The notes under the pieces were generated by a model. The model searched no databases, was not told the origin of the DNA, and saw nothing but the letters and a program-made list of their open reading frames with translations. A stretch of 62,873 nt of DNA, the filler included, from Dirinaria sp. TL-2023a (Eukaryota), in assembly GCA_051941275.1 (NCBI GenBank). It is 5 parts of 5 records of this genome, joined end to end, with 100 filler letters (N's around TTAATTAATTAA, not from the genome) between each part and the next. Parts side by side here need not be neighbours in the genome. Positions count along the whole stretch, not along the records: positions 37,799 to 50,287 come from JAVEBF010000765.1; 4 more parts are not named here. One strand, given 5' to 3'. A program made the position numbers and the translations under genes. Below, one piece after another: positions 12,506 to 50,387 of this stretch (position 1 is the first letter of the stretch; each line of letters starts with the position of its first letter).

Positions 12506-12605
12506 NNNNNNNNNNNNNNNNNNNNNNNNNNNNNNNNNNNNNNNNNNNNTTAATTAATTAANNNNNNNNNNNNNNNNNNNNNNNNNNNNNNNNNNNNNNN
12601 NNNNN
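12506..12605. other. Artificial contig linker (N44-TTAATTAATTAA-N44)
   Basis: 100 bp, palindromic 12-mer with stops in all six frames flanked by N runs. Confidence 0.99.
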
Positions 12606-25107: not shown

Positions 25108-25207
25108 NNNNNNNNNNNNNNNNNNNNNNNNNNNNNNNNNNNNNNNNNNNNTTAATTAATTAANNNNNNNNNNNNNNNNNNNNNNNNNNNNNNNNNNNNN
25201 NNNNNNN
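25108..25207. other. Artificial contig linker
   Basis: Same N44-TTAATTAATTAA-N44 as at 12506. Confidence 0.99.
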
Positions 25208-37698: not shown

Positions 37699-37798
37699 NN
37701 NNNNNNNNNNNNNNNNNNNNNNNNNNNNNNNNNNNNNNNNNNTTAATTAATTAANNNNNNNNNNNNNNNNNNNNNNNNNNNNNNNNNNNNNNNNNNNN
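37699..37798. other. Artificial contig linker
   Basis: Same N44-TTAATTAATTAA-N44. Confidence 0.99.
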
Positions 37799-38071: not shown

Positions 38072-39633
38072 GAGAAGAGATCTCTAGAATACTAGCTAGG
38101 GGATTTGCCATCTACATAGCCACGAAAAAGACTGCGCGCATGCTGTGGGATAGTTGTGAATCACTTTTTAACGGCTTCAAGATTTACAAAACTGCTGTAG
38201 CGATGCGTTATTCGTGAGGATACTGATGGAGAGTAGTTGACAAGTAATTCCATGAGTGTGTTTATCATAACAAGGAACTATGGGTACAACCAGAATCATG
38301 ACGTCTAAATAGGGTACGCCTGAATCTGACGAGCAGTGGTCCCCTTTTGGAGAGCTTTATCAAGGATGGCCTCATAGTATGAGGTCCCAGCTATTTTGGC
38401 CGATGAGCACAGTAAGTTCCGAGGTTCAATGGTGTGATGCAAGATATCGCATAGGGTCCAGAGGTATCTTTCGAGCACGGCAGACGTGAACAAATCCGAA
38501 AAGCGTTTCCAAAGCCTACGAGAAACGGAGTCACTTATTTGTTGATTTGTTCTCCGTGCCAGGCCGCTAAGATCAATGCTTCCTGACACTCGTGCTTTGG
38601 CATATATACGTTCTTATCTTTATAATAAAGTTGAGTTCTGTACTTGTTTAGATGAGAAACATCCAGCGAAACTTCCCACCATTGACTCTCGACGAGGTAT
38701 ATCTTGCTATTCTCATGCCCAGTCGAGATGAAGTTTGGGATTCCGCTGAATAAGTCAGTTTTATTGTTTTCTACCAAAGATGAGTATTGACATATTGGAA
38801 TGAGTTCTGAGACGAGACATTGGTGAATGGTGTTGAACATTCGCACAACATTACCTTGAATACTGTTAGACTTTCCCCGTAACATGAATTGAGGTCATCA
38901 ATTCATTCAAGACTCTCTATGCCTATACCTACATTATGCGTCAAGACGTATACCCACATATTTTACTGGCAGTCCGAGCGATGCAGTGGTCTTCTAGTCC
39001 ACTTGGGTACCTCCAGTATGCTTTGTATAGCTGTGCTGACACTTATTTCAAGCGCATTGCGACGAGTACCACTGCGACAACGGAGCGCGGACCTGCATAA
39101 CTGCTTGGCCTATTAGGCAATAATACCACAGTGCTGACAATGTATGTTGGCCACCTTTCATACACCGAGACACCATACCGAGGGAGGGACTCGAGACGTC
39201 GCTTGTTTCAAGTGATCATGGGGGCGCTTCCTTTGTCCAGCTTGTCCTCAAACAGCTAGTCCGGCCCCCAATATCACACTAAGCCCGATCGAGCGGAGTT
39301 CTGGCCACGCAGGCGGTTGGAAGGTCGGTTTCCTGTTATGCGACACGTACCCAGTTCCACATTCTTGCTCTCTTTTAAGCGTTTCTGAAGTCACTCCGTT
39401 TCTCCCGCAGAGTGTTGTAAGTACTCACTTGAAGTGATCGACGCAGTGGTGAACAAAGCGGTGTACGGGCCATGCACTTTTCCAGTTCGGGGAGCAAACA
39501 TTCACATTTTCTTACCATGCACAATCACACCTTGCATTCCGTCGATCCGTTGCCATGACACAATTTTACTCAAATTTCATTCCCAGCCGGTTCGAGCTTC
39601 CTGGTAAGACCAAGGCAAAGCGTTTCCGCTCCA

Positions 39634-42471
39634 ATGGCTGGCTTTTCAATTCCACTTCCTTTTCTGGATGAGGCAGCAAAGCTACAGCTCAAAGAGTCTT
39701 CCAACCATCTACGTACCGTCTCCGCTGAGCCAATCCATGCTGTGAAGGTCAAATTGCATGCTCGCGGCTCTCAATCTCTTGACTTGGCCAACCCAAAGCA
39801 GAAGAAGATTATCGATCAGTATGACACATGGACAGCTGCTCGAGCAGCATTGTCGGCCAAGAAGCGGAAGCAATTAAAGCACCAGTCCAGCCAGTCTGTC
39901 GAGTCAGTCTCTTGCGCCAGACACCTGTGTAGCAAATGCCAGACCTTCCCTTTGCAAAGCTGCCTCACTTCACCTGAACCTGGGCGCATCTGGACGTCGC
40001 CTCTTAAACGACTGATTTGGCACCAGAATGATTGTCCACTTTGCAGTTTACTGACTCGCTCACTATGCCAGCCACAGAACGATCCTTTGATGCATCCTAC
40101 TGTGTCAGTGAACCTACCCGAAAACCTGCGGAAGGACACCATGCAGACATGGCTCACCGCTCTGCTATTAGATGACGTTTGGCTTAATACTAAAGTCTCA
40201 TGGGGCCATCTTCAAAGGTGGCCATTTGCTGTTCAGGAAACTGAGGCCGAAAAGGAAAGTGCCGAGACTGATCCCACCGACATGCCTAGAATTTCATCGG
40301 GTAGTCTCAGTCAAGGCTTCGTAGCAACGACAATCGACAAGGGTGACAAGTCCACCGATACAAAGTCAAGGCTAATTCAAGCAACGTCTCCGTGTTATGT
40401 AGCGATCTCAAACAATTCAACAGCCCCGGGGCTGCTTGACGTCAAACTTTGGGGCTACCCGCGAGGAAAGAGGACTCAGATTATGGCACTGAGCAGCTTT
40501 AGACTTCGAATAGAATCAGAGTGGCCAATTTTCCAGTCTGCACGAGAAAATACGCCCTTGTCTTACGGTCACATCCTCGATTCGGATCATATAGATCTGA
40601 GTCTCGGACGAATGTGGCTCGACCACTGCGAGCAATCCCACGGCGTGTCTTGTAGCAAACAAGGATGGCCTTTCAAACTAGGCAGACCCGACTTTTTCCG
40701 GCTTATTGATGTCGATGATCTATCTGTGGTTGAGGTGACTGGATCTCAAGCGTGGAGCTACAGATATGTGGCTTTGAGCTACGTTCGCGGCCATGCAGAG
40801 ATTTACAAGCTCTTACGTAACAACAAGAACCGGCTAGTTAGAACTCATGGGCTTTTCAAAGTATTTCGCCATAATCTGTCGAAGACTGTTCGAGATGCAA
40901 TCTCAGCGACACGAGCATTTGGGGAACGATACCTATGGATTGACTCACTTTGCATCGTCCATGACGATGAAGTTGAAAAGCGGCAGCAACTGGACGTCAT
41001 GGATCGAATCTATGGCAACGCAGTCCTGACATTGGTCGTGGCTGATGCAGAACATGCTGGCGTCGGCATTAGCGGCGTTGAGGAAGGCTCCCGTGAAATT
41101 CAGCAGATCTGTGAGGAGATAGAGCCTGGTATCCGTATGATGCTTCCACTTCCAGAGACAAGGAGCTTGGCCTTAACACCTTGGAATAATCGCGCATGGA
41201 CATTTCAAGAACGGTTGATGTCACGCCGCTTGGCTATCTTCACCAACGGCCAGCTAGTATGGCGCTGCCACAGGACCGTGGCGTTCGAAGACATGACTGC
41301 AGCTGAGCGCGCCGAAGAGGCCGAGGATTTTCCATTACTATCAATGGTGCCTCAAATGACAGGGATCAAAAGTCCAGGAGAAAGCTACATAAATTGTAGT
41401 CTGATAAAGCTCGACAGCGGCAAGACCCAAGTGGTACGATCTGCAGCTTTCAAGGAATATGCTTCCTTAGTAACGCAATATACACGACGGCGGTTGCATT
41501 ATCCTTCCGATGTGCTTGATGCCTTTGCCGGACTTTCCCATGTCATGGAGCTCTGCTTCAAGTGCGCCATTAACAAAGGACTACCAGAGAATCTTCTCGA
41601 CACGGCAATTCTGTGGCGTCCAGTAGAGCGGTTGCGCAGGCGTGCCGCTGATAGTACACCAAGCTGGTCTTGGGCCGGCTGGGAAGGTTCAGTAAAGTAT
41701 GAGGATGCCTTTCGAATGTATAAGGATGACTGGACTCTCAAGCGTATCCCAAGCCACGACGGTACCGAGCCTTTTCGCCCTCTGCTTCGGTGGTTCGTGC
41801 CGAAGAATGGAGGCCTCCAATTGATCAACGGTAATGGTCTAGGTGTGCCTTTACAGACAGAGACAGAGAATCTTCCCAAGGAATGGGACAAACATCCCCC
41901 TTTCTTGTCTCCAAGAGGAAGTGAAGACGAAGACAACCTTGGATACTGGAATTATATAATGGACGACATCGAGAATATGCTTCTCGATTCCAGCAAAGTA
42001 GCAGAGATTCGCGCTCATGTCGAGGTATCAGATTTGCCCGAAACACTCATACCAAAACTCAGTGACCGGAATCTGATCTTTCGCACAAGCTGCACAGAGG
42101 CGTTGTCATTTGGGCGTATCAAACGATCCGCGGTTGTTGACCCTAAGATTCCACTTCAGTATCCGATTCTCCAACTAGCGAATACCAGGGCAGAGAGACA
42201 AGTAGGACACTTACGTCTCGATGGTGACGGACCACGGCTGTTCGATCCCGGAAGGCACTCACTGATCGTTATATCCGAGGCCCTATACTTCAATATCAGC
42301 CAAAATGATCAACAAGACGATCGCGAGGACTTTCCCCTATACAATGTCATGCTCATAGAGTGGAAAGAGGGCGGACCTTTAGCCGAGCGTCTGGGACTCG
42401 GACGTGTGTACAAACATGCCTGGAAGACTTTTGAGCCACCGCCGGTCGCAAAGGTTGTAGTGCTAGGATGA
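39634..42471 (+). CDS. HET-domain (heterokaryon incompatibility, PF06985-type) protein
   Basis: 945-aa single-exon ORF; CxxC pairs (LCSKC, CPLC), WLDHCEQSH..C, FRLIDV, YVALSYVRG, YLWIDSLCIVHDD, MDRIYGNA, WNNRAWTFQERLMSRR, YTRRRL...DVLDAFAG, PSWSWAGW, ERLGLG. Confidence 0.93.
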   Translation: MAGFSIPLPFLDEAAKLQLKESSNHLRTVSAEPIHAVKVKLHARGSQSLDLANPKQKKIIDQYDTWTAARAALSAKKRKQLKHQSSQSVESVSCARHLCSKCQTFPLQSCLTSPEPGRIWTSPLKRLIWHQNDCPLCSLLTRSLCQPQNDPLMHPTVSVNLPENLRKDTMQTWLTALLLDDVWLNTKVSWGHLQRWPFAVQETEAEKESAETDPTDMPRISSGSLSQGFVATTIDKGDKSTDTKSRLIQATSPCYVAISNNSTAPGLLDVKLWGYPRGKRTQIMALSSFRLRIESEWPIFQSARENTPLSYGHILDSDHIDLSLGRMWLDHCEQSHGVSCSKQGWPFKLGRPDFFRLIDVDDLSVVEVTGSQAWSYRYVALSYVRGHAEIYKLLRNNKNRLVRTHGLFKVFRHNLSKTVRDAISATRAFGERYLWIDSLCIVHDDEVEKRQQLDVMDRIYGNAVLTLVVADAEHAGVGISGVEEGSREIQQICEEIEPGIRMMLPLPETRSLALTPWNNRAWTFQERLMSRRLAIFTNGQLVWRCHRTVAFEDMTAAERAEEAEDFPLLSMVPQMTGIKSPGESYINCSLIKLDSGKTQVVRSAAFKEYASLVTQYTRRRLHYPSDVLDAFAGLSHVMELCFKCAINKGLPENLLDTAILWRPVERLRRRAADSTPSWSWAGWEGSVKYEDAFRMYKDDWTLKRIPSHDGTEPFRPLLRWFVPKNGGLQLINGNGLGVPLQTETENLPKEWDKHPPFLSPRGSEDEDNLGYWNYIMDDIENMLLDSSKVAEIRAHVEVSDLPETLIPKLSDRNLIFRTSCTEALSFGRIKRSAVVDPKIPLQYPILQLANTRAERQVGHLRLDGDGPRLFDPGRHSLIVISEALYFNISQNDQQDDREDFPLYNVMLIEWKEGGPLAERLGLGRVYKHAWKTFEPPPVAKVVVLG

Positions 42472-43411: not shown

Positions 43412-43609
43412 GCCGGTTCCTCTCCCCTCTTTCTCATGACACCAGAACTCATTAGATCACTGCTTGCTTTTCTCTCGCCTGTAAAATATATCGCACACAG
43501 TGACCATTAGTAGACTACTCCATAAAATATAATCTTTGCTACCCTCTTTATCAATATCACTGCTCCTCTGTACGCCCTCATCCATACATTCTTCTGCCTC
43601 CATCAATAC

Positions 43610-45845
43610 CATGGCCCAAGCCTTGACCACAATGTCCGTAGAGTACGAAAACTCGAGCTTTGAATCCGAGGTGGTCCTGTCTTTCGACCTTGCAGCCAGT
43701 CCCAGTGAGAATACGAGCATGCTGCAGGGCTTCCAAGAAGAATTTGCTGAAGATCCTGTCGCAGCCAGCGACGAGTCTTTCATGCTCGACAATCTGGAGG
43801 AATCGGAGGATCACAGCGGTGCCGAGTCATTCGAAGAAGACACTTTAGATGAGTCTGCGGGATACGGGGAGAGTGAGTCATGGACAACTTGGAGCAACGA
43901 AGAAGTTCCCACAAACTGCGCGGCAGATGGATGGGATGCCGCTTGCGGTGAGGTGGATGTACCGCTCCCAACGCCAGAGCGAATCTTTCCTTCTTGGAGC
44001 TCCCCTCTCCCTACCTCACCTGAGCCCTTACAGATCGATAGCGTCACAATCGATGGGCATCCATTCCTGACTGCCTTTTTCGAGCAAACGCGGGCCATGG
44101 ACATCCCCTTTGCAACCTCTCACCGTCTAGCGAGTTTCCTAATGCATCTGGTAGAGGAATGCTGCTTCGACTTTGTCCAACGCGTCTATCCGGACGAGCT
44201 ACCGGACGTTGGCTTTGAGGCTAATCCAGACCGCTTGGAGAGGCTACCAGTCACATCAGGAGACCAGATTGAGGTCCAGCAGTGGGCGATGCCAGTTTCC
44301 AGATGTCTCAGGCGCTTGCAATTTGAAGCGGGGTCCAACGATAATACCACATGCAATGTACGGGATCTTACGCCTATCAGGCTACTCGGGGTACACAGCT
44401 GGGCTGTATACAACACAAGGTACATCAAGCAAGTGGTCGGCTTGGTAGCGCTGCTCAAAGACGAATGCCGGCTGAGCAAGATCGAGCGAGTCTTGCAAGT
44501 GCTCTACCAGCGGCAGCAACCTCCCAGCGAAACCGCGCCAGTGATCAGTGCCGAGGACAATCGCGCGGTCGACATAGCTCTGGGCCTTGTACCGTCTCCC
44601 GCCACGACAACAAATCAGCTCCTCTGCCGGGTACAGGACATCGTGGAGAAGTCCTGCTTCGACTTCTGGTCCGCCAGACAACCGGAGTGGCTGCTCGAAC
44701 GGGGGTGGTCGGGTAACGCATGGGTAGGTAGTTCGCCAAGTACCGTTGATGGAACGGGCTGGGATTGTCCCGAAAGGGTGGAGTTGAACGTGTGGACGAA
44801 CATGGGCTGGCACTTTCCGGAGTTCTCAAGCACGAAGGATCCTTTGGCCCGGGAGCGTAAGAGGTACTATCCAGCCAGGTGGTATCTCTTCGATCTTTTG
44901 CGCAGTATGCGACGCCTGCGCAACAATGCAGCTCACAAGGGTATTGGACTCCGCGAGCAAGATATCGGAGGCCTCGAGAAGCTACTCACCGATGCCTCGG
45001 AGCTGGCCACGCTGCTTGGCGATCCGGTCGCGACAGCCCAGATCCGGGCCCTTGTTGCTCAAGCCGCGCCCGTCACTCAGCTTATTCTTGCGAGGGAGGC
45101 TGCCGAAAGAGAACTCGAGAGACGGTGGAACGAGGAATGGCAAATCCTAGGTTCGATAGAGGTTTGGGATTATACCGACCTCCTGGACCATTGCCATGGG
45201 TTTTGCCTCCACGTTTTCCCCGCAGCGGTAGCCGATGAAGAACGCACTGGACGATGGAACAAGGAATGCCAAAGTTTACTCTCGATAGAGCTTTGGAATT
45301 ATACCGACCTCCTGGACCATTGTTACGGGTTTTGCCTTCACGTTTTCCCCGCAGTGGAAGCTGATGAAGAACGGATCAGACGATGGAACAACGAATGCCA
45401 AAGTTTACTCTCGATAGATCTTTGGGATTACACGGACCTCTTGGACCATTGTAATGGGTTCGTCCTGCGTTTTCTGGGAGAGATGGTTCAACCACCTCCG
45501 CCTTGGGAGATCTTCTGGTGGGAATGGCAAAGCCTAGCTTCGATGAGGCTTTGGGACTACACAGATTTGCTGGACCATTGCGATGAGTACATCCTTGATT
45601 TCCTGTTGGTGCCACCATCTCCGGAGTTCTTCCACTGGAGATGGTACGCTTCGCTCGATGAGAAGCGCTGGTACGGGGATGATTGCTGTTCCCAATACCC
45701 CCCCTTGGACGTCGATAGTTGCCTGCCTCATTATCCCCCATTCACCCCCGAAGAGCTGCAGATGCCGTCGCTAACCTTCATGCCAATATGGCGCGACAAT
45801 CGGACCACCGGAGCCGCATTGATCAACCCTATCGGCAGCATCTGA
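43610..45845 (+). CDS. Uncharacterised protein: acidic N-terminus, two duplicated helical domains each with R-x4-H (HEPN-like), four C-terminal 43-aa repeats
   Basis: Uninterrupted ORF, first ATG at 43610. Internal duplication LVEECCFDF...DQIEVQQW...IRLLGVH...LVALLKD vs IVEKSCFDF...ERVELNVW...LRNNAAH...LATLLGD; W[DN]YTDLLDHC x4. Confidence 0.8.
45123..45610 (+). repeat. Intragenic coding tandem repeat, 129-bp (43-aa) unit x about 4
   Basis: Units start at 45123, 45252, 45381 and about 45513; core tgg[ga]attatac[cga]ga[ct][ct]t[cg][ct]tggaccattg. Confidence 0.92.
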
Positions 45846-45962
45846 AAGGTTCCTAAACATCTCCCAGCGAACTCGGCAGCGACCTCGATCCACAGCATCT
45901 GAAAGCCTCCTAAACATCTCCCAGCGAACTCGGCAGCGACACCGGTCCAAAGCATCTGAAAG
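45837..45962 (+). repeat. 57-bp tandem repeat x2.2 spanning the stop codon
   Basis: agcatctgaaag at 45837, 45894 and 45951; cctaaacatctcccagcgaactcggcagcgac twice. Confidence 0.92.
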
Positions 45963-46346
45963 CGCTATTCTTCCGTAGATCCATACACCCACGACGGCTA
46001 TGACCACGAAACCCCACATCCTCTCGACGAATTCGACGCCTCTATATATTGTCTGAAGCTCCCAGCGTATCGCAGCTGAAAGTACGACAGCGAATTGAGC
46101 ACCCAAAAAGGTCTCTCCACCCACTTCCCAACACCATTACGCCGCCCTCCAGCCAATTTTGGCCGAGATGTCCAATCATGACTCGGACGCATCCACTCCT
46201 GCCGCGCAGCCTCCACTTTCTCACCCCATCTAAAGCCTTCTTAGCTCAAGCATCTCATAACCGATGCCGCTATCCCTCCGAATAATCGGAAAATAGCTCC
46301 ACATCGAACATCACCCCAAAGAATCACTCGTCGCAAAAAGCAGTCA

Positions 46347-48348
46347 ATGACTGAACCACCTCAATCTCTCCAAAAAACCCCGCGAGAAAAAATATTGCAG
46401 AAATCTAAATCCGCTCTTCGAAATCACGCAAACATCTCAACTGTCGTACGAAAACGACATCATCGCTTTCAACACAACGAAGAATTCAAAACTCGATCGA
46501 GTGCGCGAGTAAATAAAGTATGTGTGCCTCGCAAAAATCGATATCGATCGATCGATAAAAGCCCCACATTCTCAATCCGTCCTCGATCTCCCTCTCATAC
46601 ATACAAACACAAAACCCACCGAGACCACCAACAATAAACCCATTCCTGATCTAGGAGAAGAAACAATATCGGCAAAAACGCTGAACCTCTCTAAACTTAG
46701 CTAAACATCGATCAAAAATTATCAACACTTCGTCTCATCATGCAGCATGCATGACTGAATCACCTCAATCTCTCCAAAAAAACCCCCGCGAGAAAATCTA
46801 TCGCAGAAATCTAAATCTGCTCTTCGATATCACGCAGATATTTAGATCGTCGTATTAGAACGACGAAAAATCCAGAATCGGATCGAATGCGCGCAAGACA
46901 CCACCAAGAATATGTGCCTCGCAAATCCTCACATCGATCGATTGCTAAGAAGCTTCACATCCTCAACCCATCCTCACTCTCTCTCATACAAAACCCAAAA
47001 TCCCAAAAACACCAACGATAAGTCAATTCTGAGTCAAGAGAAGAAAGATCATCAAAAACCCACCAAATCTCTCAATCTCAGCTAAAACCCACCAAAAATC
47101 ACCAAAACTCCACCTCATCATGGAGCATGCATGACTGAACCACCTCAACCTCTTCTCAAGACCATCAAAAAACATCACAGAAATCTAAATCCTCTCTTCG
47201 AAGTCCCACAAAACCTTGTACCGCCGTACCGAAACGACATCACCGCTTTCAACACAACGAAAAATTCAAAATCCGATTGAATGCACACAAGTCACCAGGA
47301 ATGTGTGCCTCGCAAGTCCCACATCCTCAACCCATCCTCCCTCACCCCATACAAACCCAAAATTCCAAACACACCAACGATAAACCCATTCCTCTCCTCA
47401 ACCAAGAGAAGAAATCCACATCGATCGATCGATAAGAAGCTCCACATCCTCAACCCATCCTCCCTCGCTTTCATACAAACCTAAAAATCCCAAAAACACC
47501 AAGCATAAACCACTTCTCAGTTTAGAGAAGAAATTCACATCGATCAATAAGAAGTCCCACATCCTGAACCCATCCTCTCTCTCCCCATACAAACCCAAAA
47601 GTCCAAACACACCAACGATAAACCCATTTCTCAATTAAGGGAAGAAATCTACATCGATCGATAAGAAGCTTCACATCCTCAATTCATCCTCCCTTCCTCT
47701 CTCCCCCAAACATACAAAACAAAAAAATCACCGAAACCATCAAGCATACCTCATTCCTCAACTACGAGAAGAAAGACCACCAAAAAAAACCCCGACCCTC
47801 TTCAAACTCAGCTACAATCAGCAAAATCATCAACACTCCACCTCATCACGCAGAAGCTGCATCTACATACATACATACCCATAAAGCGCCACAAACATCA
47901 ACATTTGCCTTACACCTCGTCACTGCTACCGCTGTTCTTCCTCTTCTTCTACGAACGAATATAACGATTGAACAAGACGCTGTTCATTGCGTCGAATCTG
48001 CGTCGAAATCCGCTTATATATCTTCAGCCTCCCTCTCTCTCTCCTCACACACAAATCTAAAACCATCAGAACCACCAACAATAAAACCATTCCTCAATCA
48101 AGAAAAGAAAGACCACCAAAAAAAACCCCGACCCTTCTCAAACTCAGCTACAATCAGCAAAACCACCAAAACTTCGTCTCATGATGCAGAAGCTGCATCT
48201 ACATACATATCGATAAAGCGTCACAAACATCGACATTCGTCTCACATCTCGTCATCGTTATCATCATTTCTCTCTCTTCTCTCCGTCTACGAACGAATAC
48301 AACGATTGAACAAGACGCTATTCATTGCGTCGAATCTGCGCCGAGATC
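46347..48348 (+). repeat. Nested degenerate tandem-repeat array (about 380-400-bp, 120-bp and 340-bp periods)
   Basis: atgactgaa[ct]cacctcaa at 46347, 46751, 47131; cacatcct[cg]aa[ct][ct]catcc sub-unit at about 46956, 47320, 47443, 47559, 47673; ctacgaacgaata...gcgtcgaatctgcg block at about 47949 and 48287. Strongly C/A-skewed. Confidence 0.88.
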
Positions 48349-50287
48349 TGTTAGGCTCCTAGACCCTGGGGCCGGCTTGGCGGCCCCATTAGTCATCAGG
48401 TAGTACTTAGGGGACGATTGTCCCATCAAATGGACATCATCTTCCTTCCAGATCATGATTTCTCAATAGCTGGTAGCATCAACAAGGCGACGATGTTCAT
48501 CGGCCCGCACATCAACCACCATTATCAGCTCTGTTTTTGCTAGTTCTTTGATTTGATTAGCTTGATAGGCCGTGTAAACGTCCTATTTCTTCAGACCGTG
48601 CAAACGATTCAGTTCGATCGCTCTGCCCGACCGACAAACCTTCGCTTCTTAACCACCCACTCTACACTGCCTCGAGGGCTGTTCAAGCTGACGTCACCGC
48701 CGGATCTATCAAGAGAGATAGTTCAAAAGGCTCATCAGATCAACGATTTCATAAACGCCACCGGCACAATCATTTCTATCGAAGACGCTCGGATTTTCAT
48801 CTACAGCATCGTGTCAACGACGTTGCGGTCACTCATATCGAGAAATCAGACTATTAGAAATACGCAGAGATCACAATCTCAGAAGTCTGTCAATTACTCT
48901 CAGAACTGAGTCATCGATAAGTCAGTCTTTACGAGAGCGATGAAAGACTTTTTGATCGCTACTTTCGCGTACAGATCTACGAACTTTTATTGCTTCTTTC
49001 TTTCGAAAGAATCAACCTCTCAGTCTCAGAATCTCAGCAGTTCATCATCAACAGAGAAAACTTCAAGTTTCGAAGAATCGATTTCTTCAGCATCTTCTAC
49101 ATATCGATTTCGAGATACAGAGAACGTCGATCTCACTTTATCATCTCGACGTATCTCTAGATCATTCACTTCTACATCTAGTGATCGTCATATCAAATCG
49201 TCAACCTCAAGAAATCAAAGAGCTAAGTCTGCGACGACATCGATCATCTCTGCGAAAGAGACAATATACAACGAGTCTATTGAATCTGCTCTCAATCTCT
49301 ATCAGTTTTCTTTCGTTATCTCGACGAATAGTATGACTGATCTTACGAAGACTCAGCAACGTACGATTGCTGAAGTAGTGAGACAAGTACTAGCAGCTCA
49401 GCAATCATCTCGAGAACCTCAAGATCTCTCAGAGTCACAAGAATCTCCGAAATCGTCGACAGAAGATAATTATGAGCAATCAAGATGAAATTCAGCTGAG
49501 ATTGACTTTTTTAATCTCTCACACGATGACAAGTTTCTGATCAGTGACGCCGACGTCATGAAATACGTCAATAAAGAGACAGTAATTCGAGACGTTCATC
49601 TGTTTATACAACGTGCAAACGATATTGCAACGAGTAAGAATGCGAAATTAATGCGTGACAATCTTTATATCTGTCTTAGAGACGAGACTCTGAACTGATG
49701 AGAGATCGAGCTTTCAGATATCGAAAGACGAATGACAAAACTCATCTTCGATGAGATCGATCTCATAAACGAATGATTCAGACTACTGTTAAAACGTTTC
49801 GCTCAGAGATCTAGAATAGCGACAAACGTTATGCTGAAGAAAAGATATACTCTTCGAGATGCGATCAATCGTCGCGAGTCTAGACAATATGCACAAAAGA
49901 TTCTAAGATCAGCAAAGAACGTCGAAATGATCATTTTACAAACGCAGTTAAACATTATCTACAATGAGATTGACTCTAGTTTGATCAAAGAGAATCTGAA
50001 GACGCTCAAGACAGAAAATATCACACTAGAGAATTTTTTAGAACAGCTGAATGATTGCAAAAACAACTGATGAGATTATGTCACTAAAATGCTCAACAGA
50101 GATCAAAAATTCAATCGTATTTCACAATTTCAGCGTCTCTTTCAGCAATCTCGCTTTTCAGACAATAATAAAGCTAATTATCAGCAGCGATTTCAACTCA
50201 ATGACTTTTTCAGTCGCGATTATCAAAATATGAATCGCGTTTATTTCAATCGCTCGTATTATTCTTCGACCAATCGTTCATACTACG
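48349..50287 (+). mobile_element. LTR retrotransposon relic (Ty3/Gypsy-like): putative 5' LTR plus mutated gag, truncated at contig end
   Basis: Begins TGTTAGG exactly where the tandem unit is interrupted. One reading frame (about 48553-50287) is broken only by TGA at Trp-like positions (48907, 49486, 49696, 49699, 49774, 50068, 50071). Gag-like motifs R*NSAEIDFF, RDVHLFIQR, DNLYICLR, LN**. Confidence 0.8.
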
Positions 50288-50387
50288 NNNNNNNNNNNNN
50301 NNNNNNNNNNNNNNNNNNNNNNNNNNNNNNNTTAATTAATTAANNNNNNNNNNNNNNNNNNNNNNNNNNNNNNNNNNNNNNNNNNNN
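50288..50387. other. Artificial contig linker
   Basis: Same N44-TTAATTAATTAA-N44. Confidence 0.99.

Follow-up and report, generated by a model that had tools for sequence, protein, structure and literature searches.

A gag relic without GG dinucleotides

We analysed a stretch of 62,873 nucleotides (hereafter the window) from Dirinaria sp. TL-2023a, a lichen-forming Lecanoromycete whose assembly (GCA_051941275.1, denoted G000) was fragmented into 3,105 short contigs. The window consisted of several contigs joined by linkers, and neighbours across a linker need not adjoin in the genome. Our subject was the relic of a retrotransposon gag gene on contig G000:C765 (48829..50287); the contig stopped at 50287, and the relic with it, so that pol was outside the window. 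When the relic frame was searched as a protein with X in place of stops, 1,914 homologous proteins were found at E<=0.001, and a Pfam search of the relic itself matched no family. The homolog P0048 (profile match to the relic gag, E 5.8e-60; 34% identity) was a gag-pol polyprotein with reverse transcriptase (RT), RNase H, integrase, SH3 and chromodomain. Because of this domain set, the relic was identified by homology as a Ty3/gypsy gag of the chromovirus type.

A preliminary description of the locus had reported no GG and about six CC in the relic, with CA/TG and CG plentiful. Exact counting agreed: GG was absent and CC occurred six times, against 41.5±5.3 GG (minimum 24) and 62.8±6.3 CC (minimum 40) in 5,000 mononucleotide shuffles. 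The observed/expected ratios (o/e) were 1.12 for CA (116 copies), 1.56 for CG (80) and 0.79 for TG (55); TA was low (81, 0.58), and TC (162, 1.90) and GA (150, 1.78) were enriched. The (CC+GG) ratio fell below 0.15 in 11 of the 605 N-free 400-bp sub-windows of the whole window, all 11 within 48801-50200, and the lowest ratio outside the relic was 0.50. Genes and the non-repeat, non-coding DNA of the window retained CC and GG. The same description had traced abundant TCGA to mutated CCGG. Namely, the relic had 21 TCGA and no CCGG, but 26 TCGA were expected from the dinucleotide counts alone, and the tetranucleotide was therefore set aside as separate evidence.

The gag frame (486 codons) contained seven TGA and no TAA or TAG, and its translation lacked Gly and Trp (no Gly codon, no TGG) and had two Pro codons, while the Gln codons CAA (17) and CAG (16) were intact; the kind of stop, the lack of Gly and Trp and the intact Gln codons agreed with the preliminary description. 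The origin of the stops from TGG was also borne out. In L002, a paralog from this genome with fewer mutations, TGG TGG was aligned to the relic TGA TGA at 49696/49699. When 50 homologs of normal Gly/Pro content were aligned, Trp stood opposite most relic stops (for example, 47 of 49 at 49696, 33 of 50 at 49774, 20 of 30 at 49486, and only 8 of 49 at 49699). Moreover, the unmutated homologs P0048 and P0050 possessed a Gly-Pro tract at the position of the relic EPQDLSESQESP, which had been read as its eroded remnant.

Directional CpC changes between copies

It had been proposed that a repeat-directed C->T mutator with a CpC context was responsible, and the alignment of element copies was the check on which CpA-dominated or context-free changes would have counted against it. 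The most informative case was contig G000:C1265, on which a 1,324-bp block (integrase end and long terminal repeat, LTR) was present twice, with one copy inside an open pol frame of 1,315 aa. The two LTRs of a single insertion were ruled out here, since the duplication included the integrase end and began at the contig edge, indicating two copies. With the open-frame copy as reference, there were 95 C>T changes, no reverse change and one transversion. Changed cytosines made up 85/174 of CpC, 3/197 of CpA, 2/100 of CpG and 5/160 of CpT (Fisher p 2.5e-44), that is, 10/457 of all non-CpC cytosines. The 5' base was roughly neutral (A 28/151, C 16/174, G 21/160, T 30/146). All seven TGG codons had become TGA, and only one of 17 Gln codons was altered. 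Since half of all CpC were altered for one transversion, it was likely that the mutation occurred as a burst and not as slow decay.

The comparison of the intact element on C1331 with locus L074 gave the same picture: CpC 28/35, CpA 5/38, CpG 0/35 and CpT 8/40, with 41 C>T changes, no reverse change and no transversion. Thus, the alignments were dominated by directional CpC transitions.

These data also bore on two other sources of C>T changes. APOBEC3G targets CC, edits its 3' C and acts on one strand only. An APOBEC3G-like cytidine deaminase editing retrotransposon cDNA would fit the fact that all tested elements were retroelements, and it shares with our case both the CC target and the conversion of Trp codons to stops. 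However, the other C of the pair was changed (TGG to TGA, not TAG): among 117 isolated CC of the C1265 pair, 68 became TC, none CT and one TT. Moreover, changes were interleaved on both strands, with splits of 34/61 in the C1265 pair and of 20/21 and 177/162 in further comparisons, and we consider such editing very unlikely. Ultraviolet (UV) light mainly alters the 3' C of TC and CC and makes CC>TT. Dipyrimidine damage in a lichen exposed to the sun, and tolerated in non-functional DNA only, would account for pyrimidines as the favoured 3' neighbours (CpC, then CpT). In contrast to its expectations, there was no 5' pyrimidine preference, CC>CT and CC>TT were represented by the above zero and one cases, the non-repeat, non-coding DNA of the window was spared, and the second context in the CpC class of metagenome loci (see below) was CpG and not CpT. 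This source was even less credible than editing.

For a wider view, we pooled 20 hand-picked, partly overlapping pairs from the same genome (>=82% identity, changes counted symmetrically). The changed fractions were CpC 295/968, CpT 320/2747, CpA 173/2748 and CpG 64/2713, with 860 transitions and 137 transversions, and many pairs had private changes on each side. An origin of the CpT changes as a by-product of CCC runs was ruled out, as CTT (120/577) and CTA (48/381) exceeded CTC (46/564). The preference for CpC was strong and not exclusive, with CpT and then CpA following after CpC was exhausted.

Spread across the assembly and standard indices

The signature was confined to repeats. Of 33 RT loci matched in the genome, 30 were examined, and in 20 of these CC/GG o/e fell below 0.15 in at least one 400-bp window. 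When 39 small contigs were sampled at regular intervals from the 3,105, such erased windows were found in three, and none of the 39 was CpA-depleted. The preliminary description had asked whether unmutated active copies were also poor in GG and CC. They were not: open-frame copies in the same genome had CC/GG o/e of about 1, and the open-frame elements on C1331 and C1265 had no CC/GG-erased window in their internal parts.

It had also been predicted that the standard RIP (repeat-induced point mutation) indices would miss such a relic, and this was the case. The relic had TpA/ApT 0.56, (CpA+TpG)/(ApC+GpT) 1.21 and a composite index of -0.65, close to the -0.59 of ordinary genic DNA (window 1-45800), whereas +1.36 was reached by a relic of this gag family with canonical CpA decay. 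Thus, the standard indices scored the relic as unmutated. A ratio of (CC+GG)/(TC+GA) separated it clearly (0.019 vs 0.84 for ordinary genic window DNA). Alignment-based tools could detect the CpC decay, because the alignment mode of RIPCAL tracks CpC, as stated in parts of PMC2621366.

A further consequence concerned protein databases. In a set of gag homologs (proteins P0002-P0159; loci L013 and L014), Gly+Pro content was under 1.5% in 80/159 proteins, one of which was the relic itself, while Trp was retained. Among the other 79, one could be matched to DNA: P0006, a CpC relic in which all 10 Trp were TGA. CpC relics stay open when TGA is read as Trp and enter databases as genes.

The gag family in metagenome contigs

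At least 54 loci of the gag family were found in metagenome contigs, of which 52 were classified and two with 87-bp matches were dropped. Among the matches listed, 23 loci were CpC-type (TGA stops), 17 were canonical CpA-type (TAA/TAG stops) and 12 were mixed, lacking CC and decayed in all contexts; several loci were identical or near-identical, so these counts did not equal counts of host species. Within the CpC class, L005 and L006 differed at 293/519 CpC and at 1-2% of other contexts (410 transitions, 6 transversions), and under heavier load the second context was CpG (up to 0.40), versus CpT in G000. In the CpA class, L027 and L029 differed at 39/56 CpA and 59/435 CpC. Because one element family showed CpC, CpA and mixed regimes, it was likely that the host set the mutation context.

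The recurrence of the signature in independent assemblies, beside CpA-type copies of the same family, spoke against the element's own composition or a sequencing or assembly artefact that drops GG. Such an artefact would be favoured by the short contigs of the Dirinaria assembly and by the position of the relic at a contig end. However, the same assembly contained open-frame elements with CC/GG o/e of about 1, and the changes were directional and context-specific, which made this the least probable explanation of all. In summary of these direct tests, APOBEC-like editing, UV and artefact each failed.

One CpC relic (L010) adjoined an ABC transporter gene (2-1717) whose product shared 92% identity with Penicillium proteins and 90% with a Coccidioides protein. 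The transporter was probably horizontally mobile. It was uninformative about the lineage that hosts the metagenome CpC loci, being patchily spread and that similar to Penicillium.

Candidate enzymes and the most likely mechanism

A C5 methyltransferase gene (PF00145) was present on G000:C1379, with motifs I-VIII intact including the catalytic Pro-Cys. We take it to be RID-like from its motifs and layout, as the domain match gave PF00145 only. The top match of the protein was identical and source-labelled Dirinaria, and matches labelled Physcia, Heterodermia, Usnea and Teloschistales ranked lower. A second methyltransferase on C712 was DNMT5-like, matching PDB 7R76 (E 1.5e-32), presumably the Cryptococcus DNMT5. 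Two methyltransferase profile searches of the fragmented assembly gave these two genes and not DIM-2, and all five matches of a BAH search for DIM-2 were other proteins.

An inspection of RID, DIM-2 and DNMT5 homologs for altered target-recognition loops had been suggested. Ser-Pro replaced Ser-Asp in the catalytic loop of the RID-like protein and of the three homologs closest to it (Asp in 104/120 homologs), and these four proteins alone among the 120 carried SGHE in place of RRH behind motif VI. They formed one branch in a quick tree of the 120 homologs (SH-aLRT 97). The loop Pro was, however, not a clean marker: it required four changes on this tree and was present in five other rows, including two Teloschistales-labelled proteins. 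From sequence comparison, these differences may serve as a lead only. It is conceivable, and we put it forward tentatively, that RID specificity was re-tuned from CpA to CpC in a clade of lichen fungi through changes in DNA-facing loops.

Since the reading of the 3' neighbour, the involvement of both strands and the burst on repeats fit such a pathway, the relic had probably been hit by a RIP-type genome defence in which a C5 methyltransferase-like enzyme converts C to T on repeats. In this defence, repeated DNA would be recognised, presumably by homology and during the sexual cycle, and C would be converted to T on both strands by an enzyme resembling C5 cytosine methyltransferases, most likely the RID of the lineage. 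The enzyme would read the base 3' of its target and prefer C (CpC >> CpT > CpA > CpG here), with no preference on the 5' side, and repeated rounds would exhaust CC and GG. The expected outcome would be the loss of Gly and Pro codons and the change of TGG to TGA, with CAA/CAG, CpG and TpA staying near normal.

Several observations weighed against this explanation. Contig C1265 carried a mutated copy together with an unmutated one, and within 48349-48829 of the window there was an abrupt change from unmutated LTR and leader to CpC-saturated gag, either a real mosaic or an assembly join. These junctions were unfavourable because classical RIP mutates both copies; they reflected either chimeric assembly or a different mechanism. 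In pairs already exhausted of CC, the CpT and CpA changes exceeded CpC in absolute count, and one of the 20 pooled pairs (L103-L104) had no context bias (CpC 8/185, CpA 11/345; 41 transitions, 22 transversions). The RID-like gene was cut by the contig end, and a search of G000 for the C-terminal, target-recognition half of RID returned only an unrelated weak match. Moreover, one of the 30 RT loci ended in a short relic (L070 3200-3604, at the end of G000:C1279) depleted of CpA/TpG and rich in TpA, which could reflect another mutator, import of the element or co-binning of a different fungus. Because this CpA-type relic lay in the same assembly, RID may still produce CpA changes, with the CpC changes coming from a second enzyme. 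Uniformity was also broken by L084 (G000:C2955), an RT relic with four TGA stops, yet normal CC/GG (1.10) and low CpG (0.72), that is, a different decay pattern. As a side observation, the canonical-looking relic on C1279 adjoined an unmutated LINE-like RT.

The strongest competitor followed from these points. Namely, a second heterochromatin-directed methyltransferase, of DIM-2 type or other, could methylate transposon CpC in vegetative tissue with subsequent deamination of 5-methylcytosine, while RID separately makes or made the CpA changes. CpG is the usual target of DNMT5, and here it was the least mutated context (64/2713 in the pooled pairs). The failure to find DIM-2 in the above searches and the 95 transitions per transversion, which favour a fast process, were also against it. 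On the other hand, it would explain both the coexistence of CpA- and CpC-type relics in one assembly (C1279) and the unmutated copies adjoining mutated ones, and mutation that was independent of RID and dependent on DIM-2 has been described in Neurospora in parts of PMC12543289. On balance we regard this alternative as rather unlikely, and the RIP-type defence as the better explanation.

Relation to known systems

The way RIP mutates and the basis of its sequence context have long awaited an answer. Canonical RIP (Neurospora crassa and most Pezizomycotina) requires RID and takes place between fertilisation and meiosis, subject to thresholds of length and identity. Like canonical RIP, the process in Dirinaria changed C:G to T:A directionally on either strand, with transitions far above transversions, was confined to repeats with sharp borders and graded loads among copies, and coexisted with a RID-like gene. 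In contrast to it, the target was CpC and not CpA, CpA and TpG were retained without TpA enrichment in the relic, stops were TGA rather than TAA/TAG, GC content went down only to about 30-38%, and the standard indices were blind. Thus, the process worked like RIP without its canonical CpA context; the signature was real and strong, and we regard it as that of a variant RIP-like defence. Clutterbuck in 2011 reportedly described wide variation of context and treated CpC doublets, and a precedent may exist there.

Amselem et al. 2015 described CpT/CpA signatures in Magnaporthe, Botrytis and Sclerotinia and CpG signatures in Tuber, Aspergillus and Microbotryum, and linked CpT to a RID-specific motif (parts of PMC4352252). 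Dirinaria shared with them a lineage-specific 3' context of C>T changes in transposons, with CpT as its second context; unlike our case, these signatures were of CpA, CpT and CpG only, and the term CpC does not occur in the main text of that paper. Passages of Horns et al. 2012 (PMC3318451) report TpCpG hypermutation of Pucciniomycotina and, with Clutterbuck 2011 as their source, variable ascomycete contexts. That process is likewise a context-specific hypermutation of repeats; in contrast, CpG was the least mutated context in Dirinaria, a 5' T was not favoured, and the genome had a RID-like gene. According to parts of PMC5737583, CpC falls in two species where CpA is still predominant. Work on lichens (PMC12542154, PMC13535494, 10.1101/2025.11.25.690456, 10.1101/2024.08.16.608140) presents RIP, in the portions available, by GC content or RIP-affected regions and without context analysis. 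A CpC-dominant RIP was not found in the available parts of the literature searched, exclusive of supplements, the k-mer tables of PMC12543289 and Clutterbuck 2011, nor in those of PMC7882544, PMC4943192 and PMC5555474; the string CPC in the text seen of PMC5602860 was dismissed as a strain name.

The CpC result contradicts the kingdom-wide statement, made in the part seen of a survey of 1,239 genomes, that a CpA preference is common to RIP-like defences (PMC12543289). Surveys based on indices would score CpC genomes as RIP-negative, with consequences for what is concluded about sex and genome defence in lichens, and a lineage with a sharply different and nearly pure context provides a direct handle on RIP context. 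If the re-tuning of RID were true, the one retrotransposon family with CpC, CpA and mixed regimes by host would be a natural series for mapping this context. CpC-RIP would then also be a hidden and fairly common defence that seeds databases with false Gly/Pro-free open reading frames (ORFs).

Other features of the locus

The coordinates are collected in Table 1. The seventh TGA of the gag frame was at 48907, outside the conserved core.

Table 1. Features of the relic and its surroundings in the window
Feature	Position	Strand	Remarks
CpC-saturated gag relic part, Ty3/gypsy (chromovirus-type, by homology)	48829..50287	+	1,459 bp; 0 GG, 6 CC, 7 TGA
Eroded Gly-Pro tract EPQDLSESQESP	49414..49449	+	sole two Pro codons remaining in frame
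Conserved gag core	49486..50073	+	six TGA: 49486, 49696, 49699, 49774, 50068, 50071
Probable 5' LTR start (TGTTAG at 48349) and leader	48349..48828	+	LTR end not fixed
Artificial contig linkers (N run, TTAATTAATTAA, N run)	12506-12605, 25108-25207, 37699-37798, 50288-50387	.	

The probable LTR and leader were not depleted of CC or GG (GG 23 vs 20.8 expected; CC 30 vs 38 expected). The LTR start (48349-48468) was 93% identical over 120 bp to a copy on G000:C1811, with differences mostly of CC/TC or GG/GA type.

Immediately upstream, a degenerate tandem array (45800-48345), C/A-rich and G-poor, with units of 57, 114 and about 340 bp, abutted the LTR start. It had 19 GG vs 39 expected and 227 CC vs 271 expected, and on C1811 a copy of the array came after the same LTR start. 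The array was excluded from the finding, as its 165 transitions were accompanied by 119 transversions. Further upstream there was a HET-domain gene (PF06985) at 39559-42471, adjoined by a 770-aa ORF (43533-45845) that had no Pfam match, contained 2.6 copies of a 129-bp repeat and was not depleted of CC/GG.
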